Assembly (NCBI GenBank): GCA_943789005.1
Contig: CALSSL010000001.1
Coordinates: 512,511-576,510, forward strand
Reading direction: 5' to 3'
Origin: an uncultured SAR86 cluster bacterium
GTDB taxonomy: Bacteria; Pseudomonadota; Gammaproteobacteria; Magnimaribacterales; D2472
Length of the DNA stretch: 64,000 bases
The notes below the pieces were generated by a model. The model was not told where the DNA came from and did no database searches. It saw nothing but the letters and a program-made list of their open reading frames with translations. Shown in pieces: positions 131 to 18,066 of this stretch. How positions within the stretch are numbered: the stretch's first letter is position 1; every line of letters starts with the position of its first letter. The translations under genes and the position numbers were made by a program.

Positions 131-1957
131 ATGTGTGGAATTATAGCTGCGGCATCAACTAGAAATGTCGGAAAACTACTAGTTCAAGGGCTCCATAAAA
201 TGGAGTACAGAGGATATGATTCTGCTGGAATTGCGCTCCATCAAGAAAACTCTATTGCACACCTTCGAACTGTAGGTAAAGTTCAGTTGCTTGAAGAGAA
301 GATGATTTCAGAAAAACCAAAAAGTAAACTTGGCATAGCTCATACAAGATGGGCAACGCACGGAGAGCCTTCAGAAGCAAATGCGCATCCCCACAAATCA
401 AAAGATTCTGTTTATATAGTTCACAACGGTATTATTGAAAATTATGTGGAGCTAAGAGAATCTTTGATTGCTGATGGATACGATTTCACATCTCAAACAG
501 ACTCTGAACTCATAGCTCATTTGCTTGATCTTTTTATTAACAAAGGTAATTCAATGATTGATGCTATGTATCTTGCCAAAGAAAAATTAGATGGAGCATA
601 TGCTATAGCAGCAATCAATCTAAACGATAATTCAAATTTAGTTGTAGCAAGAAACAAGTCACCACTTTTAATCGGGCTTGGAACAGATGAAATGTTTGCA
701 GCCTCAGACCCTCTTGCAATAGCCCAGCTCACCAACAACTTTATTTTTTTAGAAGACGGTGATGTTGCATCCATATCGGCAGAAGAATACAAAATTTACG
801 ATTCAACAAAAGCAGAAGTCATTAGAGACGTAACCCATATAGATATTTCAAGCCAAGCCACTTCTAAAGGTGATTTTAGACACTTTATGGAAAAAGAAAT
901 CTATGAGCAGCCCGAAGCAGTGTCAAACACCATAGATGGAAGAATTGGCGGTGAAGATGTTTTAGATAATATTTTTGGTCTTGGCTCTAGCGATCTTTTT
1001 TCAAAAGTTAAACGTATTCAAATCGTTGCATGCGGAACTAGCCTTCACGCAGGAAGAGTTGCTGCTAATTGGTTTTCATCAATAGCTGAGATACCTTGCC
1101 AAATAGATTATGCAAGTGAGTATAGGTATAGAAACCCTCATGTAGACAAGAACTCATTACTCATAACCATTTCTCAATCTGGAGAGACAGCAGACACACT
1201 AGCAGCACTTAATTATGCAAAGGAAAAAGATTATTTAGCCTCTTTAACTATTTGTAATGTTCCAACAAGCTCTCTTGCAAGAGAATCAGATTTTTCATTA
1301 TTTACTAATGCCGGTCCTGAGATAGGAGTTGCTTCAACAAAAGCTTTTACAACTCAATTAGCCGGACTAATGTTGCTTGCACTTTCATTGGCTAAAAGCA
1401 GAAATTTAAACCCACGTTTAAGAGGAAGAATTGTTAAAGCACTAAGGCTTCTTCCGGAAACCATTGCAGAAGCACTTCTTTGTAAAGAAAAAATGATTGA
1501 AATAGCCCCAAGTATCGCTAACAAAGATAATGCATTATTTTTAGGAAGAGGTATCTTTTATCCCATTGCAAAGGAGGGCGCCTTAAAGCTTAAAGAAATT
1601 TCCTACATACATGCTGAGGCTTATCCAGCTGGCGAATTGAAACATGGCCCACTAGCACTTATTGATGAAAATATGCCCGTTATAGCTTTAGCTCCAGAAA
1701 GTGAAATAGCAGAAAAACTAATTTCAAATCTTGAGGAAGTAAAAGCGAGGGGCGGCACTTTATATGTTTTTGCAGACCCATCAGTCAATATGGATGTGAA
1801 GGCAGGACATTTAATTCATATGCCAAAATGTGATTTCTTTATGACTCCAATTGTTTATAACATCCCGCTTCAAATACTGTCTTATGAAGTTGCTCTATTA
1901 AGAGGGACCGATATTGATCAGCCAAGGAATCTAGCCAAATCAGTAACTGTTGAATAA
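131..1957 (+). CDS. glmS: Glutamine--fructose-6-phosphate aminotransferase
   Basis: 608 aa. N-terminal MCGI (Cys nucleophile of class II amidotransferases), two SIS-type halves, C-terminal KSVTVE. Confidence 0.97.
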   Translation: MCGIIAAASTRNVGKLLVQGLHKMEYRGYDSAGIALHQENSIAHLRTVGKVQLLEEKMISEKPKSKLGIAHTRWATHGEPSEANAHPHKSKDSVYIVHNGIIENYVELRESLIADGYDFTSQTDSELIAHLLDLFINKGNSMIDAMYLAKEKLDGAYAIAAINLNDNSNLVVARNKSPLLIGLGTDEMFAASDPLAIAQLTNNFIFLEDGDVASISAEEYKIYDSTKAEVIRDVTHIDISSQATSKGDFRHFMEKEIYEQPEAVSNTIDGRIGGEDVLDNIFGLGSSDLFSKVKRIQIVACGTSLHAGRVAANWFSSIAEIPCQIDYASEYRYRNPHVDKNSLLITISQSGETADTLAALNYAKEKDYLASLTICNVPTSSLARESDFSLFTNAGPEIGVASTKAFTTQLAGLMLLALSLAKSRNLNPRLRGRIVKALRLLPETIAEALLCKEKMIEIAPSIANKDNALFLGRGIFYPIAKEGALKLKEISYIHAEAYPAGELKHGPLALIDENMPVIALAPESEIAEKLISNLEEVKARGGTLYVFADPSVNMDVKAGHLIHMPKCDFFMTPIVYNIPLQILSYEVALLRGTDIDQPRNLAKSVTVE

Positions 1958-1963
1958 ACCTGA

Positions 1964-2551
1964 ATGTCAGTCAGTAAAGAGAAATTCAAAAAAATAAAAT
2001 CTAAATATCAGTATCTTTCAAGTTGGGCAATTTGGGCAACCGAAGGCGAAACTCCTAAAAGCAATGTGGGCGACTTAACTATCCTTGATCCAGATTGTAA
2101 TAAAAATCTTTTAAGTCAACTTAATACTGAAGTAGTCTTTGTTGCTTTGAATATCTCAAGAGGGGACATAAAAACCCCATTTGGCAATTTTCATGACCAT
2201 AGACCTGCTGCAACAGATTTCAAGATTAGGTTTGCTTTTAAGGACACCCCTTTTTGGGGAGGGTATATGACAGATATCATTAAAGACTTTGAAGAAAAGA
2301 TTTCTGGAAAGGTAAAAGACTATCTATCTAAGAATAGAGATTTTGAAAAACAAAATGTCGATATTTTTTTGGAGGAGTTAAATGACATTGGCGCAAAAAA
2401 CCCTGTTTTGATTGCTTTTGGTAACGAGGTTTTTAATATTTTAAATAGACACTTAAAAGATAGGTTTAAAATCATTAAAGTACCTCACTATGCAAACTAC
2501 ACAAACAAGGAAAAATATAGAGAACAAATTAAAACTATACTTAAGTTTTAA
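1964..2551 (+). CDS. Hypothetical protein, weakly UDG-superfamily-like
   Basis: 195-aa ORF starting 6 nt after the glmS stop. VFVALNISRG and VPHYANY loosely resemble UDG-fold motifs A and B. No confident family. Confidence 0.55.
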   Translation: MSVSKEKFKKIKSKYQYLSSWAIWATEGETPKSNVGDLTILDPDCNKNLLSQLNTEVVFVALNISRGDIKTPFGNFHDHRPAATDFKIRFAFKDTPFWGGYMTDIIKDFEEKISGKVKDYLSKNRDFEKQNVDIFLEELNDIGAKNPVLIAFGNEVFNILNRHLKDRFKIIKVPHYANYTNKEKYREQIKTILKF

Positions 2552-3363
2552 CTCATTATTAATTCTGCAATTAGTGGCGAGTGATCGCTGATTTTTCTTG
2601 TTCTAGGTTCTTGATCATAAAACACATTATCAACCCTCATATTAGATGTGCAGAAAATATGATCATATCTTCTGCCAACACCCTTATTAGTAAACCAACT
2701 AAAAGACTCTTTCTCATATCTATGTTGAGATCTAAATACATCCTTCATGTCTAAATCTGTATGATTTTCAATAATGTTTCTTTCAGCAAGATCCCATCTT
2801 TCGCCAGTACACTCATCCTTCCACTTGGGATTAACAGCAATTCTTACTTTCCCATTTGAGTTTACTTTTTGACCCCAGGTTATAACTTCACCAGACATCA
2901 ACTCTTGTTTTGGTGAATTAAAGTCGCCAGTCAGTATCATATTCTTAACACCCCTTTTTGATAGAAATTTATACAGACCTTCAAAGTGTTCAACTTTAAT
3001 AACTCCATTCGATGACCCTGGTGGAACATGGGTAGTGTGAACTTCATAATCCTGTATAGAACAAGACAAAACCCTTTCAGGAAAAGGAACTGGAGCAAAC
3101 TCCTCTATATTAATAATAGAACTTTTAGAGATTATCATTTGACCATATTTTCTTTTATTCACTAATACAGACTTATCTTTAACCAAGTCGAAAGAACATA
3201 TAACACTCTCATTGGCAAAATAGTCTTTTATAAAACCCTCTGAACCTAAAAGAACTTCTTGAAGTGTGATTATGTCAAAGTCTCCCTTTCTCAAATAATC
3301 ACATTGTTCAGTTAAATTTTTTTTATTTGTTCGTGAATTTAAATTCCAAGTTATTACTCTCAT
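2548..3363 (-). CDS. Endonuclease/exonuclease/phosphatase (EEP, ExoIII/DNase I-like) family protein
   Basis: 271 aa. MRVITWNLN...LQEV at the N-terminus, GDFNS, and SDHSPL near the C-terminus are EEP-fold motifs. 4-nt convergent overlap with 1964-2551. Confidence 0.8.
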   Translation of the reverse strand: MRVITWNLNSRTNKKNLTEQCDYLRKGDFDIITLQEVLLGSEGFIKDYFANESVICSFDLVKDKSVLVNKRKYGQMIISKSSIINIEEFAPVPFPERVLSCSIQDYEVHTTHVPPGSSNGVIKVEHFEGLYKFLSKRGVKNMILTGDFNSPKQELMSGEVITWGQKVNSNGKVRIAVNPKWKDECTGERWDLAERNIIENHTDLDMKDVFRSQHRYEKESFSWFTNKGVGRRYDHIFCTSNMRVDNVFYDQEPRTRKISDHSPLIAELIMS

Positions 3364-3420
3364 AAAAACATTTTAACTTATGCGATAATTAATAAATGTT
3401 AAATATTGGGTGGGTTAAGA

Positions 3421-3552
3421 ACACTCCGTTACGGTGGAGTAAATTTGAGACGTCCTTCGTTTTAACCTCGCATTCTGCGGGGGTTTCAAGAATCACCAAA
3501 AATTAAACCCGGTAAAAACTACCTTAAAAAGGTCACCTATTTTTTCGTGTTA
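3421..3552. repeat. Structured intergenic repeat, copy 1 (left arm + spacer + diverged right arm)
   Basis: ACGGTGGAGTAAATTTGAGACGTCCTTCGTTTTAACCTCGCATTCTGCGGGGGTTTCAAGAATCAC aligns with 5817-5880. AGGTCACCTATTTTTTCGTG (3530-3549) aligns with the right-arm end AGGTTCACTTATTCTTTTGCTG (5906-5927). Confidence 0.7.
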
Positions 3553-3641
3553 GCAGAAGTCATAAGACATTTATAAGAACGATTGCGACTTCTTATGTGT
3601 ATTAATAGGACATTTATGAGGAGTTATGGCAGAATATTTTA

Positions 3642-4091
3642 ATGAACATGTACAACATTCAAGATAAAGAAATGATAGAAGGATATGTTTCTTTAGATGG
3701 CGACCAAGTAACAGCAGCTATTTTTAGCTCACTATTACCTGACCCCAAAGGCGACTATTATCTGGGTGCTTATTACGGTTACGCAGGAGGGGGTGTAAAT
3801 GATGGAGGGTTTTTTAGCATTGATATAGAAAATTCATTTCACAAACACATTGATTTTGATGAGTTTGATGAGATAAGAAGTCAAAATATAAAACAACACA
3901 GTGTTTTGGAAACCTTAATGCAGAGAATATGGCATTACATTGAAGAAGATGATGGTATTTTACAATTAACAAGCAGTGGTCTAAAACTTAAAAAGAACGA
4001 AGATGGAATATGGATTTCAGATAATTTTGATGGAGACTTTTTATCTGAAATTTCTGACCAGTGGTCTATTTCATTAAAGTTTTATAACTAG
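3642..4091 (+). CDS. Hypothetical acidic cytoplasmic protein (cassette ORF)
   Basis: 149-aa ORF bracketed by repeat copies 1 and 2. No recognisable motif. Confidence 0.5.
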   Translation: MNMYNIQDKEMIEGYVSLDGDQVTAAIFSSLLPDPKGDYYLGAYYGYAGGGVNDGGFFSIDIENSFHKHIDFDEFDEIRSQNIKQHSVLETLMQRIWHYIEEDDGILQLTSSGLKLKKNEDGIWISDNFDGDFLSEISDQWSISLKFYN

Positions 4092-4132
4092 AATTAAAAG
4101 ATTTAATAGGAATTATGATCAAATCATGCAAT

Positions 4133-4207
4133 CAATTCTCAAACTCTTCAAACACTGCAGAAATAGTGGAGAATGAAAGTCGAGGTTCACTTACTCCGTT
4201 ACAGTCG
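4133..4207. repeat. Structured intergenic repeat, copy 2 (spacer end + right arm)
   Basis: CAGAAATAGTGGAGAATGAAAGTCGAGGTTCACTTACTCC (4158-4197) matches CAGAAATAGTGGAAAATGAAAGTTGAGGTTCACTTATTC (5881-5919) with a few mismatches. Confidence 0.7.
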
Positions 4208-4255
4208 AATGATAAGAAGTCTTCGGCCCTCGACGGCGCACTAGGGAGTTGACGT

Positions 4256-5059
4256 CTGTTTAAGCACATTCACATTGTTGCCTGCTCGCCGCGATCCGGT
4301 ACTACTCTCTTGCACGAGGCGATGGTCACCTGTTTTCGGACAAACAAGCATTATGACCATGAGATTCGCTTTCACCTCGTAACCGCAAAAAACAACGATG
4401 TGGTTATCACGAAACGACCCAGAGATACGTTGTACATGCCAGGAGTCATCGACGATCCTAATCTCTATGTCATTTACGTAACGCGCGATCCGCGTGATGT
4501 CATCGTTAGCCGGCACGGTAAGAGCGAGGATATGTACTACTCGAACATTAGGCTTTGGCGTGAATTGCATGCCTGTGCACGCTCATTGTTCGGCCACGAT
4601 CGTTTTCTCAATATCCGGTACGAGGATTTCGTAAATAACCCTGACGCCACACAAAGCCAAATCACTGCAAAATTTCCATGGCTTGAGAAACAACACAAAT
4701 TTTCTGAGTACCATGAACACGCGCAAGTGTCTGAAAAGTCAAAGGTTGCAATGCGTGGCGTCCGTCCTATTGGACCGACCAGTGTCGGTGTCTGGCGAAA
4801 ACATCTCGGTCGCATCGTTCAACAGCAGGCAATCCACGGCACAATGACACCAGATCTGGTCGGTTGTGGATACGAATCATCGCCGGATTGGGAAGTTGTT
4901 CTGGACGGCGTTTTACCGGATAAATCTAACAGTTGGTATCCGGAGAAAAAACGTTTTTGGCAGAGAATTTCGCAATCCATTGATGCTTCGAGAAAAATAG
5001 CTATCTATCGGCGCAAGAAAGGACTTAGTCGAATCAGCAGAGCAACCAATGATCGTTAG
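4256..5059 (+). CDS. PAPS-dependent sulfotransferase (start moved upstream of the ORF-track start)
   Basis: RDPRDVIVS is the 3'-phosphate-binding motif. The same frame upstream of 4310 reads FKHIHIVACSPRSGTTLL, the 5'-phosphosulfate-binding P-loop. The frame is closed by TGA at 4250-4252. The only start-like codon ahead of the P-loop is CTG 4256, 7 nt after TAGGGAG (4242-4248). Confidence 0.75.
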   Translation: MFKHIHIVACSPRSGTTLLHEAMVTCFRTNKHYDHEIRFHLVTAKNNDVVITKRPRDTLYMPGVIDDPNLYVIYVTRDPRDVIVSRHGKSEDMYYSNIRLWRELHACARSLFGHDRFLNIRYEDFVNNPDATQSQITAKFPWLEKQHKFSEYHEHAQVSEKSKVAMRGVRPIGPTSVGVWRKHLGRIVQQQAIHGTMTPDLVGCGYESSPDWEVVLDGVLPDKSNSWYPEKKRFWQRISQSIDASRKIAIYRRKKGLSRISRATNDR

Positions 5060-5747
5060 CCATGCAAAGAAGTTTATTTTCGTAAAGACCCGTAAAACCT
5101 CGGGCACAAGCATGGAGGTTAGTCTGAGCCAAGTCTGTGGTCCCGATGACATCATCACTCCGATATCGTTTGAAGACGAACTCGTCAGGCTGGACATGGG
5201 CGGCACGTTACCTCAGAACTACGCTGGTCTTGGAGAGCAGCGATATCGCGATATGATAAAGGCACGCAAGATGAAATTTTTACGCGCCAGACGCCGTGGC
5301 AAGTTTTTCAATCATATGCCGGCTGTTGCGATTCGCGAGCACGTCGGCAAAAAAACTTACGATGATTACTTCACTTTTTCGATCGAAAGGCATCCGTACG
5401 AAAAGGTTGCATCACATATCTATTATCATGCGCGCGGAAAAAAGAACTGGAGTTTTGACAAGGAGCTTGAGCGTGTTCTGAAGAAGAAGTATTACGTCAA
5501 TTACCCAACCTATTCAGACGGTGAAAAACCTATTGTCGATTTCATTGTCAATTTTGACAATATGCAGGAAGACCTCACGACCCTCGGCGACAGGCTTGAA
5601 TTTGATATTGTCGCGCACTATCCACAAACCAAACACGAATTCCGAACTAACAGAAGGCCTGCATCCGAGCTGTTGTCGCAGAAAGTAAAGGACCAAATAT
5701 ATAAGAACTGCAGGATCGAGTTCGATGCAATGGGTTACGAGCGTTAG
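5049..5747 (+). CDS. Sulfotransferase family protein (family-2-like)
   Basis: 232 aa. N-terminal FVKTRKTSGTS resembles the PAPS-binding loop. The ATG overlaps the upstream stop (ATGATCGTTAG), which suggests translational coupling. Confidence 0.7.
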   Translation: MIVSHAKKFIFVKTRKTSGTSMEVSLSQVCGPDDIITPISFEDELVRLDMGGTLPQNYAGLGEQRYRDMIKARKMKFLRARRRGKFFNHMPAVAIREHVGKKTYDDYFTFSIERHPYEKVASHIYYHARGKKNWSFDKELERVLKKKYYVNYPTYSDGEKPIVDFIVNFDNMQEDLTTLGDRLEFDIVAHYPQTKHEFRTNRRPASELLSQKVKDQIYKNCRIEFDAMGYER

Positions 5748-5752
5748 CCATG

Positions 5753-5927
5753 CACAAATAGTGGAAAATCAAAACATTGCTACGGCTACTCTGCTACTGT
5801 TGAACTCAGTCAGTGACGGTGGAGTAAGTTTATAACGACTTTCATTTTAATCCCGCATTCTTAGAGGGTTTTAAAAATCTCAGAAATAGTGGAAAATGAA
5901 AGTTGAGGTTCACTTATTCTTTTGCTG
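5753..5927. repeat. Structured intergenic repeat, copy 3 (partial unit plus the most complete unit)
   Basis: In the complete unit 5812-5927, ACTTTCATTTT (5838-5848) is the perfect reverse complement of AAAATGAAAGT (5893-5903). The outer arms GAGTAAGT and ACTTATTC pair at 7 of 8 positions, around a spacer of about 45 nt. 5753-5772 repeats CACAAATAGTGGAAAATCAA. Confidence 0.8.
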
Positions 5928-5950
5928 TAAAGTAGATTTGGTATAAACAT

Positions 5951-6679
5951 ATGAATAATCTAGTTGACGTTTTTTTAAATATTAGAAATAGTAAGTTTTT
6001 TAACACCCTAGTAATTTTTATAATAATAGCTTCAGCTATATATGCAGGAGTAAGCTCTTATAATCTTCCAGAAAATTACCTCAAGCTTTTAATCGCATTT
6101 GACTATGTAATTACTATTTTTTTTGTATTTGAGATACTAGTTAGAATTGTATCTGAAAAATCATTTGGTAAGTTCTTTAAAGATGGGTGGAACATTTTTG
6201 ATTTTATTATTGTGGCTTTAAGTCTTATTCCCGTTGGAGCGGGTTCTGCAATATTTGTTGCAAGGCTGCTTAGGATTATTAGAGTTCTTAGAATTATAAC
6301 TGTCATTCCAGCATTCAGAAAAATTATAGACTCATTAATTATGTCATTGCCCAGAGTTGGATTCGTTGCCCTTTTGTTATTTATATTTACATATATTTTT
6401 GCGGTAATTGGCACTATGTTATTTGCTGATGTTGATTCGTTAAAGTGGGGAAATGTTGGCAGGGCATTGCTGACACTGGCGCAAGTAGCAACATTTGATG
6501 ATTGGGGGGCAATTATGGGGCGAGTTCTTCAAACCAACCAATTTGCTTGGATTTATTTTGTTTTCTTTATAATTATTAATGCTGTTATTCTTCTCAACAT
6601 GGTCATTGGGGTCATTGTTGATGTAATGATAAGCGAAAACAACAAACCTTCTATCAAAGAAACAAGATATGAAAAATAA
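5951..6679 (+). CDS. Voltage-gated ion channel, BacNav/NaChBac-like single-domain 6-TM type
   Basis: 242 aa with six hydrophobic segments. S4 has Arg at every third residue (RLLRIIRVLRIITVIPAFRK). The pore loop LTLAQVATFDDWGAIM aligns to the BacNav FQVMTLESW filter. Confidence 0.85.
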   Translation: MNNLVDVFLNIRNSKFFNTLVIFIIIASAIYAGVSSYNLPENYLKLLIAFDYVITIFFVFEILVRIVSEKSFGKFFKDGWNIFDFIIVALSLIPVGAGSAIFVARLLRIIRVLRIITVIPAFRKIIDSLIMSLPRVGFVALLLFIFTYIFAVIGTMLFADVDSLKWGNVGRALLTLAQVATFDDWGAIMGRVLQTNQFAWIYFVFFIIINAVILLNMVIGVIVDVMISENNKPSIKETRYEK

Positions 6680-7130
6680 ATTTATTGTAATGTTTGTTTT
6701 TTTATTGTCATCTTTTACAAAGGCGGATGATCAACGTTTTGCCATCGACGCTTTATTGGATGGTCTTCACCAAGACGCACACAGGGGGAATTTTCAAACC
6801 TATTTTGCCCGTTATAGTTCGGACGCTATTTTTTTAGGAACAGACAAAACAGAGCGCTGGACCATAGAAGAGTTTAAGAACTATGCCAAACCAGCCTTTG
6901 CAGACGGTCATGGATGGACCTATAAAGTTGTTGAGAGAAACTGGGCAGGAGAGAGTAATACAAGATGGTTCGATGAAATTCTGTTCAATGAAAAACTAGG
7001 TCATTGCAGAGGCACTGGTGTTGTACAACTGAAAAATGGTAAATGGAAAATAGCTCACTATGCTTTGACAATGCTTGTACCTAATGCCATCGCCGCAGAG
7101 GTAGGTGAGCAAACCCAAGAAGCTGACTAA
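6669..7130 (+). CDS. Secreted NTF2-like (SnoaL/DUF4440-type) protein
   Basis: 153 aa with an N-terminal signal-like segment MKNKFIVMFVFLLSSFTKA. NTF2-fold-like core. 11-nt overlap with the channel gene. Confidence 0.55.
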   Translation: MKNKFIVMFVFLLSSFTKADDQRFAIDALLDGLHQDAHRGNFQTYFARYSSDAIFLGTDKTERWTIEEFKNYAKPAFADGHGWTYKVVERNWAGESNTRWFDEILFNEKLGHCRGTGVVQLKNGKWKIAHYALTMLVPNAIAAEVGEQTQEAD

Positions 7131-7147
7131 ACATAAAATAAAAAATT

Positions 7148-7189
7148 CTGCTTCGGATACTCTGCCACAGTGGAGAAAATTAACGGCAG
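7148..7189. repeat. Structured intergenic repeat, copy 4 (short left-side remnant)
   Basis: 7148-7171 (CTGCTTCGGATACTCTGCCACAGT) matches 5777-5800 (TTGCTACGGCTACTCTGCTACTGT) at 19 of 24 positions. It then continues GGAGAAAATTAACG, like the left arm GGAGTAAGTTTATAACG. It ends in a T-run and may double as a terminator. Confidence 0.5.
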
Positions 7190-7232
7190 TTTTTTAAAAT
7201 TTTAAGATGCTAAAACAACTAAACATTATCCC

Positions 7233-11513: not shown

Positions 11514-11948
11514 ATGATGAAATTAAAACTACCCTTTACAGACAGCGGCCTTCACTGGACCACAGTAATTAGTGAAAAGATTCTTTTGGCAATTATTGGA
11601 ATAGCAACATGTGTTGCAGCGGCTCAGTATTTATATTGGATGTATGAAGCAAGAGAGATACTTCTTTCAGATTTATTTATGTTATTTATTTATGTTGAGA
11701 TAATAGGAATGGTTGGTGCATTCTATAGCACAAGTAGGATTCCAGTAACGCTCCCTATTATTATTGCGATAACAGCTTTATGTAGATTAATCATTATGCA
11801 AGGCAAAGAAATGGATGCGCTAATGCTGATTGGAGAGTCTGGAGCAATTTTGATTCTTTCTGTAGCTGCATATGTCATGAGCCTTAAAGACAAGATTAGT
11901 CTTGAGAAAAAGGAACAGTTCAAGGATGAAAAAAGTCCAGGAAACTAA
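11514..11948 (+). CDS. PsiE-like small inner-membrane protein
   Basis: 144 aa with four hydrophobic segments. Size and topology fit the PsiE family. Assignment is tentative. Confidence 0.45.
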   Translation: MMKLKLPFTDSGLHWTTVISEKILLAIIGIATCVAAAQYLYWMYEAREILLSDLFMLFIYVEIIGMVGAFYSTSRIPVTLPIIIAITALCRLIIMQGKEMDALMLIGESGAILILSVAAYVMSLKDKISLEKKEQFKDEKSPGN

Positions 11949-12119
11949 GTGATAGAGATTATTTATTTTTTAGTCTTCGCTTGGTTTTTTATCCATTTCA
12001 TAGAATGTATTTATTATAGAAAGACTATTAATAAATCTCCTCATGGCAGACTAAAAGGGTACTTATATACTTTTTTATTTGGAGTGCTATATCTTAGAAA
12101 GTTAAAATCGAAACATTAA
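11949..12119 (+). CDS. Possible 56-aa membrane peptide (below the ORF-track cut-off)
   Basis: GTG follows directly after the upstream TAA. It reads VIEIIYFLVFAWFFIHFIECIYYRK... and stops at TAA 12117-12119. Support is low. Confidence 0.25.
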   Translation: MIEIIYFLVFAWFFIHFIECIYYRKTINKSPHGRLKGYLYTFLFGVLYLRKLKSKH

Positions 12120-13420
12120 AAATTTTCTTCGTGGAAATCTGTAATAGCAGAATCAACCATTGCATCTCTAACTTGTAATTCTTGATATAGATTTAAAGAG
12201 TTTAAAGTCTTGCACCTGCTTAGAGCCACATAAGTTTGACCGGTAGCAAAAGCACCATTACCTAAATCTATCGAACAACTTTCTAAAGTTAATCCTTGGG
12301 CTTTATGAATAGTAACTGCCCACCCAAGCTTAATAGGAAATTGTTTGAAAGATGACACGACCTCCTCCTCCATCTCATCATTATATTCATCGTAAACATA
12401 TTTAATTTTATTCCACTCTTCTCTTTTAACTTTATGTATATCATCACCAACCTGAACTCTTAAGAACCTTCCTTTTTTGTCTGAACAATTAGTAACCTCA
12501 CCTATTGTGCCGTTTACCCATCGCCCCTCACTATCATTTTTTATAAACATTACTTTTGCACCTTTTTTTATTCTTAAATTCCTTGGCGCCGGAAGATCAT
12601 TTTCATTAAACTCTCCAAATTCCTCTGACTTAGCTGATGTAGCTGGTCCTTCTATGAAATTTAACATTTCTTCATTTATTTGCTCTGCTCTGTACTTTCT
12701 TGTGGTGATTATAAGAGAAGATTCATTATCAAAATCTGGATTAAAGCAGGCATGATTGATTTTATTTATTGATTCTTCAAGATTTTCTCCTAGACGAATA
12801 TTATTAAGAAGAGAATAAAAATTTTCATCTGCGCTTTGCCTAAAAGAATAAGTAAGCTCAAAAAAGGATGGATTCTTTATTGCTTTAAAACTATTTGCGC
12901 TGAAGAAATATACAGAATCATATTTTTCATCTATTGCATTTATTTCATTATCCTTAACAACTGGAGGTAATTGAAAAAGATCACCACATGCCAGAACATG
13001 AACCCCGCCAAAAGGCTTATCACTATTTCTATAAAGTTTTAAGGTCTCAGATATAGCATCAAGCATCGGAGCTCGAACCATTGAAATTTCATCAATAATT
13101 AAAAGCTCTAATTTTTTTAATAATTTTTTAAATCTAGGATCATTTGACTCTTGTATAACCGGAAAAGTATCAAAACCAATTCTAAAAGCAGAGTTTATCG
13201 TACTGCCGCCAATATTTAATGCTGCAACACCGGTAGGGGCAACAACAATTTTTTTAAGACTATTTTCTTCTAAAACTTTTTCTATGAGGGTCGTTTTACC
13301 AGTTCCAGCGGCACCAGTTAAATAGATAAACTGTTGCTTATCAGAATCTAAAAGATCGAGAACTCCACTTAAAGTATCTTCAAATGAATTCTTATTATCT
13401 ACATTTACTGTTTTTGTCAT
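12116..13420 (-). CDS. PIF1/RecD-like SF1B DNA helicase
   Basis: 434 aa. Walker A GAAGTGKTT, LIIDEISM (Walker B), GDLFQLPPV, and C-terminal VTIHKAQGLT...YVALSRC. Confidence 0.85.
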   Translation of the reverse strand: MTKTVNVDNKNSFEDTLSGVLDLLDSDKQQFIYLTGAAGTGKTTLIEKVLEENSLKKIVVAPTGVAALNIGGSTINSAFRIGFDTFPVIQESNDPRFKKLLKKLELLIIDEISMVRAPMLDAISETLKLYRNSDKPFGGVHVLACGDLFQLPPVVKDNEINAIDEKYDSVYFFSANSFKAIKNPSFFELTYSFRQSADENFYSLLNNIRLGENLEESINKINHACFNPDFDNESSLIITTRKYRAEQINEEMLNFIEGPATSAKSEEFGEFNENDLPAPRNLRIKKGAKVMFIKNDSEGRWVNGTIGEVTNCSDKKGRFLRVQVGDDIHKVKREEWNKIKYVYDEYNDEMEEEVVSSFKQFPIKLGWAVTIHKAQGLTLESCSIDLGNGAFATGQTYVALSRCKTLNSLNLYQELQVRDAMVDSAITDFHEENF

Positions 13421-13505
13421 ATGTTAAATATAGCTAGGCTTGTTAAAGATTTTTTTATTAACCTTATTTAGATGTAGAATTATATGATATTAAAAAACAA
13501 AATTG

Positions 13506-14804
13506 ATGATGAAAAATAAAGTAGCAATTATTGGAGCAGGCCCATCAGGCATAACTGCAATAAAGAACTTTTCTGAAGCAGGTTTTGAGGTAACAGCGTT
13601 TGAGAGATGTGAGGGAGTTGGAGGTAACTGGAGGTTTAATGATCCTTCAGGACATTCAAGTGTTTTTGAAACAACTCATATAATTAGTTCGAAATATACC
13701 TCATTCTATGAAGATTATCCCTTACCCGATTCTGCCTCAGACTATCCGTCTCACAAAGAACTTTTAGAATACTTTAATAATTATGCCGATCACTTTGATA
13801 TAAAAAAGTTAATTCATTTTGGAACTGAGGTTTTGCACTGTAAACAAAAAGATAACGACACATGGACTGTTAAATGGAAAAATCTCAAAGACGGACAGGA
13901 ATTTTCTGATACTTATGATGCATTGGTTGTATGTAATGGACATCACCACAAGCCTAGGTACCCAGATTATCCAGGAGAATTTTCTGGAGAGATGATTCAT
14001 TCCCATGACTTTAAATCTTCAGCACCATTTGTTGATAAAAGAGTTTTAGTTATTGGCGGAGGAAATTCTGCTTGTGATGTTGCAGTAGAAACTGCAAGAG
14101 TCTCTAAGTCAACCTCTATTAGTTGGAGAAGAGGCTATTATTTAATTCCTAAATTTATGTATGGCTTGCCCGTCGACCTATATGCTTTAAAAAATAGATG
14201 GATGCCTGCTTTTTTAAGAGCGCCATTTACAAAAATGATGCTAGAAATATTTCAAGGTAAAAACGAAGATATCGGACTTCAAAAGCCTGATCAAAACCTT
14301 TTCGCTACACACCCCACCGTTAATTCAGAACTTTATTATGCGGTTCGCCACGGAAAAGTAACTCCATATAAAGATATAGAGCGACTAGATGGAAATACCG
14401 TTCATTTTGTTGATGGTCAAAGCTCTGAGTTCGATACAATAATTGCTTGCACAGGATTTAAAATACAACATCCATTTTTTGAAAAAGACTTTATAAATTA
14501 TGAGGAGGGCAAAGTGCCTCTCTTACATAGAATGATTCCTGCTGACGTAAATAACTTATATTTTATTGGTTTATTTCAACCTCTTGGATGCATATGGCCT
14601 GGAGCAGAATTACAATCGAAATTAGCTGCAAAGCATCTGCAGGGCAATTGGAAGCCACGCAAGTCAATTCAAAGACTTATTGATGAGGAGATTGCAAAAC
14701 CTGATGTTAAGCAAATAGATACGCCTAGACACACTATTACAGTCGATGACTTCTCTTTTAGAGCTAGACTGAAAAAAGAGCTTAATAGGTCACAGAACAT
14801 ATAA
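13506..14804 (+). CDS. Flavin-containing monooxygenase (FAD/NADPH-dependent)
   Basis: GAGPSG dinucleotide motif, FSGEMIHSHDF (FxGxxxHxxxF FMO motif), GGGNSACD second Rossmann motif. The ORF track starts at TTG 13503; ATG 13506 is preferred. Confidence 0.85.
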   Translation: MMKNKVAIIGAGPSGITAIKNFSEAGFEVTAFERCEGVGGNWRFNDPSGHSSVFETTHIISSKYTSFYEDYPLPDSASDYPSHKELLEYFNNYADHFDIKKLIHFGTEVLHCKQKDNDTWTVKWKNLKDGQEFSDTYDALVVCNGHHHKPRYPDYPGEFSGEMIHSHDFKSSAPFVDKRVLVIGGGNSACDVAVETARVSKSTSISWRRGYYLIPKFMYGLPVDLYALKNRWMPAFLRAPFTKMMLEIFQGKNEDIGLQKPDQNLFATHPTVNSELYYAVRHGKVTPYKDIERLDGNTVHFVDGQSSEFDTIIACTGFKIQHPFFEKDFINYEEGKVPLLHRMIPADVNNLYFIGLFQPLGCIWPGAELQSKLAAKHLQGNWKPRKSIQRLIDEEIAKPDVKQIDTPRHTITVDDFSFRARLKKELNRSQNI

Positions 14805-14819
14805 CCCAGTCCATTTAAT

Positions 14820-15455
14820 ATGCAAGATTGTATAGTTTGCGAAAGCAAGTTAACTAAACCCTTTAATACTTCAGATAATCTTTTATATTGGGATTGCAAC
14901 TCATGTGAAGTTATATTCTTAGATAGCAAACATCATATAGATCCAGCCTCTGAAAGAGAAAGGTACCTAGAACACAAAAATATTATTCAAGATACAGCCT
15001 ATAGAGATTTTTTATCTAAACTTACAAATCCATTAAAAGAAAAACTTTCTTCAGGTTCCTGTGGCCTGGACTTTGGATGCGGTCACGGCCCTGCTCTTGC
15101 AGATATCTTAACGAAAGATGGCTTTGAGATTGAATTATATGACCCATTTTTTTATCCAAATAAAGAAATATTCTCAAAAATTTATGATTTTATAACCTGT
15201 ACTGAGACAGCAGAACACTTTTTTAGCCCAAAGAAGGAATTCGATATATTAAATAGCTTATTAAAACCCAAGGGCTGGCTTGGTGTTATGACATGTTTTT
15301 TAACCGAAAGAGAGGCCTTTGATAAATGGTATTATAGAAGGGACCCAACCCATGTAGTTTTCTATGCAGAAAAAACATTTGAAGTTATAGCAAAACAAAG
15401 AGGTTGGAAATGCGAAATAGTTACCAAAGATATAGTACTATTTTATAAACAATAA
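14820..15455 (+). CDS. Class I SAM-dependent methyltransferase with N-terminal Cys4 zinc ribbon
   Basis: CIVC...CNSC at the N-terminus. LDFGCGHG is SAM motif I. Confidence 0.75.
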   Translation: MQDCIVCESKLTKPFNTSDNLLYWDCNSCEVIFLDSKHHIDPASERERYLEHKNIIQDTAYRDFLSKLTNPLKEKLSSGSCGLDFGCGHGPALADILTKDGFEIELYDPFFYPNKEIFSKIYDFITCTETAEHFFSPKKEFDILNSLLKPKGWLGVMTCFLTEREAFDKWYYRRDPTHVVFYAEKTFEVIAKQRGWKCEIVTKDIVLFYKQ

Positions 15456-15476
15456 TTTTAAACTAAGGGGTTATAT

Positions 15477-15890
15477 ATGTTTAGTCATGTAATGTTGGGT
15501 GCAAATAATATAGAAGAGTCAAAAGTATTTTATGATGAGACTCTTTCGGCTTTGGGCGCAAGGCCAGGAAAGCTTTCCTTAAATCATGACGGACATACAA
15601 GATATATTTATTTCGTTAACAATAAAAATAGCTTCATAATTTCACAACCAATTAACAATCAAGAAGCAACTCATGGGAACGGCGCTACGATTGGATTTAA
15701 TGCCTTAAGTGCAGATATGGTAGACGAATGGTATCAAGCTGGAAAAAATGCCGGGGGATCTGATCCTGAATTATGCGACCCCCCAGGCATTAGAGAGGGT
15801 GGCGGTGTTCAGTTATATTTAGCATATTTGTTAGACCCGGCTGGTAACAAGATATGTGCTATGTATAGAATACCAAGGCAAGTCGACTAG
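15477..15890 (+). CDS. VOC (glyoxalase/bleomycin-resistance/dioxygenase) family protein
   Basis: 137 aa. MFSHVMLGANNIEESKVFY is a typical VOC N-terminus. Confidence 0.7.
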   Translation: MFSHVMLGANNIEESKVFYDETLSALGARPGKLSLNHDGHTRYIYFVNNKNSFIISQPINNQEATHGNGATIGFNALSADMVDEWYQAGKNAGGSDPELCDPPGIREGGGVQLYLAYLLDPAGNKICAMYRIPRQVD

Positions 15891-16276
15891 TTATTTTCTT
15901 TAGTTGCTAGAATTAAAAGCCCTCCAGCAATAGCAGTATTTTTAATAAAATTTTGCATCTCATGTGCCTGGGAAGGATCTCCACTCAAATCCCAAAAGTT
16001 ATGAATGTAGTAGTTAATTAGAAAAGTTAAAACAAATAATATTAGTCCACTCAATCTTAAATTTTTACCAAACACTATAAATAGACCAAATGTTGTCTGA
16101 ATTATTATAGTTAGTGGCAGAGTAATTGTTACTAACGGCACTCCTTTTAGAAGCATCAAGGCACCGATGTCATGATATGTAAAAAGCTTGGCAAAACCAA
16201 ATATGAAAAAATATAAACCAAGAATAGTTCTTCCAACAAGAAACGAAGCGTGATCAATTTTTTTTATATTTAACAT
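15887..16276 (-). CDS. DoxX family membrane protein
   Basis: 129 aa with four TM segments. Size and topology fit DoxX. Confidence 0.65.
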   Translation of the reverse strand: MLNIKKIDHASFLVGRTILGLYFFIFGFAKLFTYHDIGALMLLKGVPLVTITLPLTIIIQTTFGLFIVFGKNLRLSGLILFVLTFLINYYIHNFWDLSGDPSQAHEMQNFIKNTAIAGGLLILATKENN

Positions 16277-16298
16277 ATTTATATGTTAACTTAATTGC

Positions 16299-17495
16299 AT
16301 GTACAAGATACTTTTAATTCTTTTATCAGTGTTGCTCATAATTATTGGGGTTTTTTATGGTCCCAAAATTGCAAGACTTTATCATTTAGCAAATTTATAT
16401 AATGAGGATTCAATAGCTAGTAATTTTATTAATATAGATAAAATTTTTTCTGTTTCTGAGCCTATTCCTTCCTCAGATAAGCCGTATACATTTCCAACAA
16501 GAGATTTTGTTCTACCAGAAACTTATTTTTTTGATGGTGAGCAAAGACTTCTCTCTGAAGGTTTGGAGCACTTTAAAACCGATGGTTTGATTGTTTTGCA
16601 TAATGGAGATTTGCTCTATGAAAATTATTGGAATAATAATTCAGCCACCAGCAAGCACATAGCATTTTCAGTAACCAAATCCTTTGTGTCAGCATTGGTA
16701 GGAATAGCTCTTGACGAAGGACTAATTGATAGTATTGAAGATCCTATTACAAAATATTTATCTGACTTTAATGGCACTGGCTATGAAGGGGTGAGAATTA
16801 AAGACATTCTGCAAATGTCTTCAGGAGTAGATTTTAATGAAGATTATGCCGACCCAAAATCAGATATAAATAGATTTGGAAGGGCAACAGCGAGAGGGTC
16901 ATCTTTCAGAGATTTTGCAAAATCTCTTGAAAGAGGAAGAGAGCCAGGCACCTATCATGATTATGTGAGTATAGACACTCAAGTACTTGGATTCCTGCTT
17001 GCAGAAGTTACAGGAATGCCATTAAAAGAATACTTACATAAAAAAATATGGAATAAAATTGGCATGGAGGATGAGGCCTTTTTTATTGTGGATAATAATG
17101 GTGTAGAAATGGCTCTTGGCGGGCTAAATGCAACCTTGAGAGATTATGCAAAATTTGGTGAGCTTTATTTAAATAGGGGTAAATGGAATGGCGAACAGGT
17201 AGTTCCAGCAAGCTGGGTAGATGCATCTCACAACACAGACGGCCCTCATTTAAAGCCGGGTGAGTCTGAACTATCTTCATCGCCCTGGGGATATGGATTG
17301 CAGTGGTGGGTGCCAGGCTTTCCAGATACAGATTACACCGCTTCCGGTGTATACAATCAATATATTTATATTGATCCATTAACCAATGTGGTGATAGCGA
17401 AAACATCTTCAAATCATAGATATACTTCTGAAAAGGAATACTCAAAAGCTGCTCATGTGGCAATGTTTAGGGCAATAGCAGAAAGTATTAGATAA
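16299..17495 (+). CDS. Serine hydrolase (beta-lactamase/PBP-related fold)
   Basis: 398 aa with an N-terminal TM anchor. SVTKS is the SxxK active-site motif. Confidence 0.85.
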   Translation: MYKILLILLSVLLIIIGVFYGPKIARLYHLANLYNEDSIASNFINIDKIFSVSEPIPSSDKPYTFPTRDFVLPETYFFDGEQRLLSEGLEHFKTDGLIVLHNGDLLYENYWNNNSATSKHIAFSVTKSFVSALVGIALDEGLIDSIEDPITKYLSDFNGTGYEGVRIKDILQMSSGVDFNEDYADPKSDINRFGRATARGSSFRDFAKSLERGREPGTYHDYVSIDTQVLGFLLAEVTGMPLKEYLHKKIWNKIGMEDEAFFIVDNNGVEMALGGLNATLRDYAKFGELYLNRGKWNGEQVVPASWVDASHNTDGPHLKPGESELSSSPWGYGLQWWVPGFPDTDYTASGVYNQYIYIDPLTNVVIAKTSSNHRYTSEKEYSKAAHVAMFRAIAESIR

Positions 17496-17499
17496 AAAC

Positions 17500-18066
17500 A
17501 TGCGCTTATTAATACTCTTCAGTAGTATTTTTTTATTTTCTTGTCAGAAGATACCAGAAGATAATGTTTATACCCCACCAAACACCACAAAAGAGCTTAA
17601 AAATATAATTTATCTAAATGTTGATATAGATAAAGCCTTACAAAAAATACCAAGCATAATTAATCAAAATTACTCACAAGACCAAAATCTTTTTGAATTT
17701 AAAATTAAAGTTAAGCCCGAAAATATTTCCAAATTTATTGATTGTGGAACAATGAATGATGAGATTTATGTTAATTATATAAATAGGATTTTTGATTCAT
17801 CGCTGGAGATTAAAACATTAACAGAACTTTCAGCTGAAAGGGACAGTTATACTAAGATTGAAATTATTTCACATTATATATTTTCATCAATTGAGACAGG
17901 GGCTCATTTAATGTTGATGCCAAAAGATCCGTCTTCTTTAGATGGGCAATCCACAGACTATACAACAGGAGCACCTTATGTGATGTTTAAAGGAACTCCT
18001 TATGTTCATCTTATGATTCCTATGACCGGATATTACGATTATCAGCCCACGGCAGCACCTAAATAA
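17500..18066 (+). CDS. Hypothetical lipoprotein
   Basis: 188 aa. MRLLILFSSIFLFSC is a lipobox-type signal. Confidence 0.55.
   Translation: MRLLILFSSIFLFSCQKIPEDNVYTPPNTTKELKNIIYLNVDIDKALQKIPSIINQNYSQDQNLFEFKIKVKPENISKFIDCGTMNDEIYVNYINRIFDSSLEIKTLTELSAERDSYTKIEIISHYIFSSIETGAHLMLMPKDPSSLDGQSTDYTTGAPYVMFKGTPYVHLMIPMTGYYDYQPTAAPK

Follow-up and report, generated by a model that had tools for sequence, protein, structure and literature searches.

The region downstream of glmS

The stretch of DNA analysed here (hereafter the window) comprises 64,000 nucleotides from an uncultured SAR86 cluster bacterium and carries, past the essential gene glmS, a series of small units of unrelated gene content that are separated by related repeats. 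A sequence-only reading of this DNA had proposed four repeat-bearing boundaries (3421-3552, 4133-4207, 5753-5927 and 7148-7189) and an integron-like or hairpin-recombination cassette array, or else a MITE-type transposable element that seeds recombination. We found that the boundaries repeat the last codons of glmS, and the units are probably passengers of a system driven by a large serine recombinase (LSR) encoded in related loci. The features of the locus are listed below; ORF stands for open reading frame, and LA and RA for the left and right arms of a cassette.

131..1957, + strand: glmS, the target gene, a 608-aa ORF with Pfam GATase_6/7 and SIS domains
1940-1957, + strand: glmS-proximal site, the last 18 nt of glmS, TCAGTAACTGTTGAATAA
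1958..3432, + strand: unit U0, the first unit, closed on the right by a 'type 3' arm (ATATTGGGTGGGTTAAGAACAC) for which there is no matching left arm
1964-2551, + strand: 195-aa ORF of U0
2548-3363, - strand: 271-aa Exo_endo_phos protein (Pfam) of U0
3425..3442, + strand: site 2, SVTVE-stop, TCCGTTACGGTGGAGTAA
3433..4202, + strand: cassette 1, type 1, a chimera with the leader of a 224-aa cassette and the body of a 149-aa cassette
3436-3463: LA of cassette 1, with the inner GC palindrome arm at 3467-3494
to about 3641: conserved leader of cassette 1, with a mini-ORF at 3625-3666
3642-4091: acidic 149-aa ORF of cassette 1, whose ORF cluster is found in 56 contigs
4115-4197: trailer and RA of cassette 1
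4195..4212, + strand: site 3, SVTVE-stop, TCCGTTACAGTCGAATGA
4203..5797, + strand: cassette 2, GC 0.48-0.50, found in 10 of 17 contigs, where its left neighbour is one of three
4310-5059: Sulfotransfer_3 protein of cassette 2 (Pfam PF13469, E 3.6e-7)
5049-5747: 232-aa ORF of cassette 2, no significant Pfam family
5756-5792: diverged RA at the end of cassette 2
5790-5807: decayed site of cassette 2, SATVEL, TCTGCTACTGTTGAACTC
5810..5827, + strand: site 4, SVTVE-stop, TCAGTGACGGTGGAGTAA
5818..5925, + strand: empty cassette, with LA 5821-5848, inner arm 5852-5879 and RA 5884-5920
5918-5935: decayed site of the empty cassette, SFAVK-stop, TCTTTTGCTGTAAAGTAG
5951..7130, + strand: distal unit, with an Ion_trans channel (5951-6679) and a SnoaL_3 protein (6669-7130; both Pfam)
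7142..7178, + strand: terminal decayed site (TCTGCCACAGTGGAGAAA, 7161-7178, SATVEK) and RA remnant, the end of the array

Every boundary bears an 18-nt mimic of the glmS end, TCN GTN ACN GTN GAR stop, which reads S-V-T-V-E-stop; these codons, present in each copy, had escaped the sequence-only reading. The strict pattern TCNGTNACNGTNGARTRR occurs four times in the window (1940, 3425, 4195 and 5810) against 0.00 expected, and three decayed mimics lie at 5790, 5918 and 7161. The copies vary at wobble positions and are therefore conserved as codons. The same holds outside the window. A scan of metagenomes with the core pattern returned at least 120 contigs in which, among the matches listed, 230 strict sites all lie on the same strand, 171-5570 bp apart (median 990 bp), with all four bases at the wobble positions and invariant codon positions 1-2. 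Also among the matches listed, GlmS ends exactly at the first site in all 30 contigs that have a GlmS match (44-100% identity). The motif is centred on an imperfect palindrome, about GTTTAAACTTAnTCC-GTT-AC-nGT-GGAGTAAGTTTAAAC, and alignment of 58 distinct sites gave roughly GTTTAAACTTA(C/G)TCC-GTT-AC-NGT-GGAGTAAGTTTAAAC, with the bases AC of the Thr codon falling exactly on the dyad centre.

Pairwise alignments bore out the four proposed boundaries: 3422-3501 aligns with 5807-5886 (75% over 80 nt), 4147-4205 with 5870-5928 (80% over 59 nt) and 5771-5803 with 7142-7174 (76% over 33 nt). A fifth copy, at 5742-5800, is a degenerate right half that aligns with the 4147-4205 copy. The inverted arms of the best copy (5822-5848 and 5893-5919) are as had been described, 27 nt long, 74% complementary and 44 nt apart, the inner arms ACTTTCATTTT and AAAATGAAAGT pairing perfectly and the outer arms GAGTAAGT and ACTTATTC at 7 of 8 positions. 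However, the hairpin at 5812-5927, which had been taken for a unit boundary, is actually an empty cassette seen inside out, and the boundary is the glmS-stop mimic. Nor does the repeat region start right after glmS as had been thought, since two genes (1964-3363), themselves a variable unit, intervene before the first copy. The reported contrast in composition was recovered, with GC 0.31-0.34 in the surroundings and 0.48-0.50 over 4200-5400. Among the gene calls, Exo_endo_phos, Sulfotransfer_3, Ion_trans and SnoaL_3 were upheld by Pfam, whereas the 232-aa ORF, called as a sulfotransferase partner, fell into no family.

The repeats are confined to this region. Their sub-motifs were not found in the other ~57 kb of the window (0-0.26 matches expected for each), and a scan of all 64 kb for dispersal of the kind seen with repetitive extragenic palindromes (REP) or bacterial interspersed mosaic elements returned no copies outside 3400-7200. 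Rfam gave no match on the whole window at the gathering threshold, nor on 3400-4230 at E<=1. A promoter and terminator scan showed no enrichment, and a terminator label for the GC hairpin was dropped as the scan did not call it.

Cassette turnover and matched ends

The window was compared with 16 siblings of its population (17 contigs in all), six retrieved by an exact GlmS look-up and ten by a look-up of the channel protein. Six contigs encode an identical 608-aa GlmS yet differ in the genes between glmS and the ion-channel gene, and the ten further variants retrieved by the channel protein extend the comparison, the island being 2.9 to 7.3 kb long. Unit boundaries are SVTVE-stop motifs in every contig. 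The 149-aa cassette of the window stands after U0 or after a 224/162/145-aa cassette, and the sulfotransferase unit has three different left neighbours. Three of the 17 contigs (window, L046 and L047) have U0, which L050 and others lack. The slot of the empty cassette, in which LA abuts RA, holds 173-aa and 134/145-aa ORFs in L003, L044 and L049. The channel-SnoaL pair was present in all 14 contigs whose retrieved sequence reaches its position, and its flanking sites are decayed. The proposal of a cassette array at the glmS hotspot that varies between strains is supported, and the distribution of units together with the distal decay of sites fits entry beside glmS and ageing in the distal direction. 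Downstream of the array, sibling L048 carries a tandem duplication of a nitroreductase-DUF952 pair (15406-17758) that is unrelated to the cassettes.

The 300 nt preceding the glmS end are 98-99% identical among siblings, and the terminal 18-mer of glmS occurs in six versions in seven contigs with an identical protein. The final ~10 nt of glmS are therefore exchanged together with the first unit.

Each cassette starts with the right half of the palindrome (LA) and finishes with the left half (RA). At least two families of ends surround the common core, type 1, which is that of the window, and type 2. In type 1, the LA (GGAGTAAGTTTA..CTTTCATTTT) precedes a GC palindrome arm and a conserved leader of ~220 nt, and the RA has the sequence AAATAGTGGAGAATGAAAG..ACTTAGTCC; the symmetry of this type spans about 96 nt. 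Type 2 ends are compact, AAATCACTGTTTAAACTTAA and TTTCGAACAGTGATTTAA flanking the core. The 'type 3' arm of U0 was also seen in L030 and L049, and mixed LA and RA types occur inside single units.

When the LA of a cassette was compared with the reverse complement of its own RA, the mean score was 12.0, against 8.5 for other pairings, and the own RA was the best partner of the LA in 12 of 53 cassettes. Virtual circle junctions fold at a mean of -14.3 kcal/mol compared to -8.5 for array junctions (p=2.5e-5), and random re-pairings of ends, at -10.5 kcal/mol, are weaker than own circle junctions (p=1.9e-4). The folding signal emerges only once both ends of one cassette are joined; single repeat copies fold no better than shuffles (z -1.4 to +0.4). 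Folding each copy, as the sequence-only reading had suggested, gave nothing significant (best z -1.4), and the compensatory changes for which it had proposed a test lie between the two ends of one cassette. They occur in 12 of 20 pairs (11 type 2 cassettes), and 0 of 500 shuffles reached the observed values; 90% of the cells at type 2 ends are paired versus 78% in shuffles, and sliding the partner abolishes the signal. Most are transversion pairs with few G-T intermediates, a rarity that does not favour an explanation at the RNA level.

Cassette ends are matched, and therefore each cassette is a unit with co-evolving half-sites. Co-evolving ends are expected if the two are joined as one attP-like site in a circular unit. 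The matching could come from selection on structure, or from co-evolution of both half-sites with a cognate recombinase lineage.

Homologous recombination adds to this turnover. Type 1 leaders are 82-93% identical over about 220 nt, and cassette 1 consists of the exact leader of the 224-aa cassette of L047 up to GGAGTTATGGCAGAAT, followed by the body of the 149-aa cassette. This chimera therefore records a crossover between leaders that deleted about 2 kb, which also accounts for the poor match between LA and RA of cassette 1. As judged from this one case, homologous recombination between leaders appears also to delete and reshuffle units.

The leader itself ends in a conserved ribosome-binding site and a mini-ORF that overlaps the start of the cargo ORF (leader at 3495-3666 in the window, 5493-5660 in L047 and 4000-4130 on the - strand in L009); the mini-ORF of the window reads MAEYFNEHVQHSR-stop. 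Between the window and L009, a leader stem (CATAAGR/YCTTATG) differs by a compensatory change. The type 1 leader may be an expression or translational-coupling module. In L014, the cargo ORF of 365 aa (3267-4364, reverse-complement orientation) runs through the RA and ends in …YGYSVTVE-stop, so that the recombination site serves as its own C-terminus. The smallest cassettes often encode hydrophobic peptides of 40-55 aa of the Gly-zipper type that start with MEGL… and adjoin the left arm and a ribosome-binding site (L001 13499-13648, L005 12516-12680); many type 2 cassettes carry them, such as those of L035, L037 and L182 (11769-11897).

Arrays of this kind extend beyond the population. Genome contigs were scanned with an RA 19-mer, and about 26 chance matches in unrelated phyla were disregarded. 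Six SAR86 species representatives (GlmS 85-92% identical) carry arrays downstream of glmS, with as many as 8 sites in 4 kb, and one SAR92 and one 'Woeseiaceae' single-amplified genome also contain arrays. An Enterobacterales metagenome-assembled genome (GlmS 52% identical) has one cassette whose LA is identical to that of the window; here and in the six SAR86 species, too, GlmS terminates precisely at the first site. Arrays were seen after glmS in contigs where GlmS is only 44-52% identical. The 179 delimited cassettes fall into 147 sequence clusters with varied neighbourhoods. One cassette of 248 bp is 94% identical between two hosts with unalignable glmS 3' ends (L119 264-511, L166 2771-3018); it encodes a protein of ~64 aa (…ICIKTEIPKE.CEIDDELKAIYHSHDTVCIWVFKSR…) and recurs in four divergent lineages, including L009 (3090-3284, - strand) and L030. 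Cargo includes restriction-modification systems, McrB-like, HNH and NucS-like nucleases, as well as a fatty-acid desaturase, PhyH, phytase, a TonB receptor and many small membrane peptides; no integrase or transposase was found among the cargo of the arrays examined. IMG/VR gave no real matches to three site and arm patterns or to the LSR P0163, and these scans gave no evidence for a phage vector. The 8 kb array-bearing locus of the SAR92 genome (L012), whose glmS falls outside the fetched stretch, also holds a C-terminal part of guaA, another classical island hotspot (GMP_synt_C, 189-665, - strand).

A large serine recombinase and the point of exchange

The sequence-only reading saw no recombinase in the window, and our searches agree: phmmer with XerD, IntI1, Hin and gamma-delta resolvase and tblastn with six large serine recombinases gave no match in the window. 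An XerC positive control was picked up when the phmmer search was run in identical form on array-bearing loci. In related loci, an LSR of ~550-570 aa with Resolvase, Recombinase and Zn_ribbon domains is encoded next to the site. Its genes run in the orientation of glmS and end 4-63 nt before a site in the loci found by site pattern (L065, L102, L115, L130, L081 and L093). Loci fetched by protein, independently of the site pattern, keep this arrangement (L173-L180, L182 and L183), the site lying 7-63 nt past the LSR stop in L173, L175, L176, L178-L180, L182 and L183. The family has 551 homologues at E<1e-10, and adjacency of the LSR gene to the site recurs in six or more LSR lineages. The geometry is the same in L115, L130, L182 and L183, where the LSRs are 36-43% identical and the genomes range from GC 0.43 to 0.61. 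The nearest solved relatives are SPbeta SprA, TP901-1 integrase and TnpX.

Two loci present the whole element. In L177, glmS is followed by a 6.8 kb element that closes with the LSR gene, by a site 43 nt on and by more cassettes, beyond which lies the same DUF6249 gene family that flanks the array of the window. In L174, a 9.1 kb element closes with the LSR gene and is then followed by the site. Both elements are inserted exactly at the glmS stop. Furthermore, L081, from the window's own population, matches L005 except that an inserted LSR element separates glmS from the first cassette. A search of PHROGs with the genes of LSR elements returned one family of unknown function and no recognisable phage genes.

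Some LSR elements carry further genes. Proteins of 140-176 aa in three LSR lineages have a weak REP_ORF2-G2P match (L177 5863-6324, L174 3049-3579 and L182 8855-9277); this match, to a family resembling rolling-circle initiators, hints at possible autonomous replication of the excised element. Small Hin/resolvase-like serine recombinases of ~200 aa (Resolvase and HTH_7; L081 3334-3936, L093 2242-2853) adjoin the LSR or sit one cassette away, and could be a partner, an invertase or cargo. In L181 (Pseudidiomarina taiwanensis, 11641-14708), an LSR element with a type I restriction-modification system is followed by a variant site, TCCAAAACAGTGGAATAA, and a Tn7-like right end with tnsA and tnsB starts 2 nt past it, so that two glmS-targeting systems are stacked. 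This Tn7-like element is a marker of the glmS locus.

Junctions locate the exchange. The right end of the LSR element, ...CACTTATTCCGTTAC, is identical in L177-L180 and precedes four unrelated sequences: TGTAGAGTAG; GGTGGAGTAA with a type 1 leader; GGTAGAATGA; and TGTTGAATAA. Likewise, L182 and L183 diverge past TCGGTGAC. A site that follows an RA, including the right end of the LSR element, always reads TCCGTTAC, while genuine glmS ends retain TCA GTA/GTC AC and take their later bases from the first unit. Sequences diverge directly past the invariant AC at the dyad centre. These breakpoints and the retained glmS ends place the exchange at or beside the central AC, and we infer a cut exactly at AC. 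Serine recombinases use a 2-bp central crossover.

Together, these observations suggest the following mechanism. The attachment site would consist of the closing 18 nt of glmS, around which an imperfect palindrome is centred, and the circular element would bear the full palindrome RA-core-LA. The LSR would swap strands at the AC in the middle (positions 1 and 2 of the Thr codon), so that after integration glmS would keep its native sequence as far as AC and receive its other 10 nt from the element, its protein unchanged, and the former glmS end would be shifted to the far side of the element. Newcomers would enter beside glmS and push older units outward, where their sites would decay. The units of the window would be passengers comparable to pseudo-SCC elements (SCC, staphylococcal cassette chromosome) and may be mobilised in trans by LSR elements present at this locus in other cells, or may be remnants of LSR elements. 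Homologous recombination between the ~220-nt type 1 leaders would additionally remove or reshuffle units.

Competing explanations and relation to known systems

We consider it probable that 1940-7178 of the window is an LSR-driven, SCC-like tandem cassette array at the glmS stop, in which the cassettes of the window are passengers that lack a recombinase of their own. Several observations weigh against this. No tyrosine or serine recombinase was detected in the window or its 16 siblings, so LSR activity on these very cassettes is inferred. Part of the LSR association is biased, as the metagenome loci were picked by site pattern, and frameshift errors affect several contigs, which come from long-read assembly. 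Neither an excised circle nor an empty attB was seen, and shared leaders confounded the search for circle junctions. Furthermore, LSRs normally recombine attP with attB only; for elements to enter again and again at a hybrid glmS-proximal site, specificity would have to be relaxed, as is reported for Ccr, or the half-sites would have to be symmetric. The symmetry of type 1 arms, about 45 nt per side, is also longer than usual LSR half-sites. The cassettes of the window may still be mobilised in trans, or may be fossils reshuffled by homologous recombination.

A purely homologous-recombination island, in which RecA would swap, delete and add segments through leaders, trailers and core genes after DNA uptake and the glmS-end copies would be by-products, draws on the one demonstrated leader-leader deletion, on the 82-93% identity of the leaders and on the mixing of LA and RA types within single units. 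We regard it as unlikely, since it leaves unexplained the same cassette in hosts with unalignable flanks (also L009), the breakpoints pinned to AC, the single orientation and codon-level conservation of the 230 sites listed, and the LSR gene abutting the sites; moreover, the type 2 ends, of about 20 nt, are too short for efficiency. Another rival is an integron-like system, whose attC-type palindromes would fold as single strands and be recombined by an IntI- or Xer-like tyrosine recombinase encoded elsewhere. Small, mostly co-oriented and very diverse cassettes, covarying ends as in attC sites and an array that itself lacks a recombinase, as in clusters of attC sites lacking integron integrases (CALINs), all speak for it. 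Yet R''/R' boxes are absent, GTTACNG is a poor match to GTTRRRY, the crossover falls on the centre of the palindrome, so that half-sites and not an intact 3' attC stand at opposite cassette ends, and phmmer detected no IntI or Xer homologue in about 1 Mb of array-bearing loci, where the positive control was recovered. Adding the LSR genes that abut the site and the predominance of transversion pairs over G-T intermediates, we hold an integron mechanism to be very improbable; the associated enzyme is a large serine recombinase and not a tyrosine recombinase. The sequence-only reading's description of the repeat as non-attC was correct, the boundaries being dyad-symmetric recombination sites.

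Target-specific transposons with terminal inverted repeats (TIRs), or miniature inverted-repeat transposable elements (MITEs), moved by a DDE or HUH transposase with GTNAC as target duplication, would account for the terminal inverted repeats of the cassettes and the single core copy between neighbours; a Tn7-like element is one version, glmS being a Tn7 hotspot with a Tn7-like element beside the array of L181, and the weak REP_ORF2-G2P match in LSR elements is HUH-like. Apart from that separate L181 element, no array contains transposase or Tns genes, the cassette ends lack TGT...ACA termini, the TIR sequence differs from cassette to cassette, which is unexpected for one transposase, and the LSR association is consistent across lineages, all of which leaves this explanation with very little probability indeed. 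The MITE-type element that the sequence-only reading had offered as seeding recombination survives in part, as in one case the repeats did seed homologous recombination (cassette 1 versus L047); SCC/SCCmec is a closer model than a MITE. A generic REP-like intergenic repeat or terminator hairpin with no role in mobility is refuted by distribution and hardly deserves consideration: in its favour are the intergenic position of the copies, a GC hairpin with trailing T's right past the stop codon and the lack of significance of individual folds, but the family is restricted to the glmS-downstream array within 64 kb, is always glmS-linked elsewhere, marks presence/absence boundaries between strains, and was neither called by the terminator scan nor matched in Rfam. 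Two other candidates, TTAC targeting of the IS200/IS605 type and a protelomerase-type hairpin, were set aside once LSR genes were found abutting sites. The sequence-only interpretation is thus partly supported, right in kind and wrong in mechanism and boundary placement.

More tentatively, and with slightly less than even confidence, we propose an ocean-wide LSR gene-capture platform at the glmS stop, in which tiny cassettes circulate among SAR86 and other Gammaproteobacteria by means of a palindromic attP. If so, it would be a functional counterpart of integrons, with hundreds of tiny cassettes, many with their own leader and mini-ORF, that reaches streamlined cells otherwise without mobile elements (GlmS down to 44% identity). 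Matched cassette ends would rebuild in the circle a long palindromic attP whose recognition would depend at least in part on symmetry, and the near-universal GlmS C-terminus would provide a ready-made attB in most bacteria. The origin of flexible genes in streamlined marine bacteria is an open question, as conventional mobile elements seem lacking there; this locus gives SAR86, a very abundant ocean clade, a concrete route in the form of an 18-nt site, a candidate enzyme and a large cassette pool that spans defence, surface and metabolic functions. An LSR with an attB in the GlmS coding sequence could also give a broad-host-range, single-orientation landing-pad tool complementing Tn7, and the 18-nt codon-degenerate motif is a simple marker to find arrays and delimit cassettes in metagenomes. 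No description of a glmS-targeting LSR cassette system was found in the literature searched, the coverage of which is incomplete, and the system appears not to have been described before.

Several known systems share parts of this architecture. Like integrons and CALINs, the glmS arrays are co-oriented and composed of small, mostly single-gene cassettes from a very diverse pool, with imperfect-palindrome sites that vary in sequence and keep their symmetry, a single fixed entry platform and apparent distal ageing. Unlike integrons, they have no IntI, attI or attC (R/L boxes), to which their core GTNACNGT shows no fit; the crossover falls on the centre of the palindrome and leaves half-sites at both cassette ends, the platform is the glmS stop codon and the enzyme is a serine recombinase.

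Additive islands anchored at tRNA genes, including tycheposons, likewise occur in marine streamlined genomes and show recurring target-end repeats. In Methylophilaceae islands, repeated tRNA-Lys copies correspond to the last ~20 nt of the target gene (PMC10872708), and in tycheposon-type islands successive integrations push older elements inward while degenerate remnants persist (bioRxiv 10.1101/2020.12.28.424599). Those islands use tyrosine recombinases at tRNA or tmRNA genes, in contrast to the protein-coding target, synonymous variation and LSR found here; the repeats are glmS codons, and no tyrosine recombinase was detected in the window or the array loci.

Like Tn7, the glmS arrays find a safe harbour in the near-universal coding sequence for the GlmS C-terminus, are inserted in a single orientation and form islands past glmS. 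Tn7 inserts about 25 bp downstream of the glmS stop, and TnsABCD, a 5-bp duplication and the absence of a copied glmS end are features of Tn7 that set it apart; the arrays contain no Tns Pfam domains, the sole Tn7-like element being the separate neighbour in L181. The enzyme has the Resolvase, Recombinase and Zn ribbon composition of large serine integrases of phages and related elements (SPbeta SprA, TP901-1, TnpX), and phage LSR att sites are dyad-symmetric with a central 2-bp crossover. However, sequence similarity to these enzymes is weak, with E 2e-10 and an alignment limited to the catalytic half, and the elements are 7-9 kb long, have no recognisable phage genes and are absent from IMG/VR.

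The closest analogue is SCC/SCCmec, not an integron or a MITE, because the boundary is a glmS-stop mimic and the enzyme is an LSR. SCC elements are bordered by imperfect 18-bp direct repeats that correspond to the 3' end of the target gene, GAAGC(A/G)TATCATAA(G/A)TGA, and restriction-modification and McrB-type cargo is common among them (PMC10581047). As with SCC, which CcrAB or CcrC inserts at rlmH/orfX, the target here is the last codons of a conserved housekeeping gene near oriC whose ORF is preserved, the borders are 18-bp imperfect direct repeats of the gene end with terminal inverted repeats, and restriction-modification and McrB-type genes are found in the glmS arrays too. The recombinase is again a serine recombinase, carried by LSR-bearing relatives and not by the window, and composite tandem islands include pseudo-elements that lack a recombinase, here with up to 8 sites per array and no recombinase in most units. 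In contrast to SCC, the target is glmS and not rlmH, the hosts are marine Gammaproteobacteria and not Firmicutes, and the units, with a median of about 1 kb and a minimum of 171 bp, are much smaller as well as more numerous and more diverse; a single LSR of ~550 aa at the right end of the element takes the place of a ccrAB pair, and many cassettes have a conserved expression-type leader of 220 nt. The glmS system would thus work like SCC without being a strict member of that group, the likeness drawn here being one of architecture, and it would extend the SCC principle beyond Firmicutes and rlmH.

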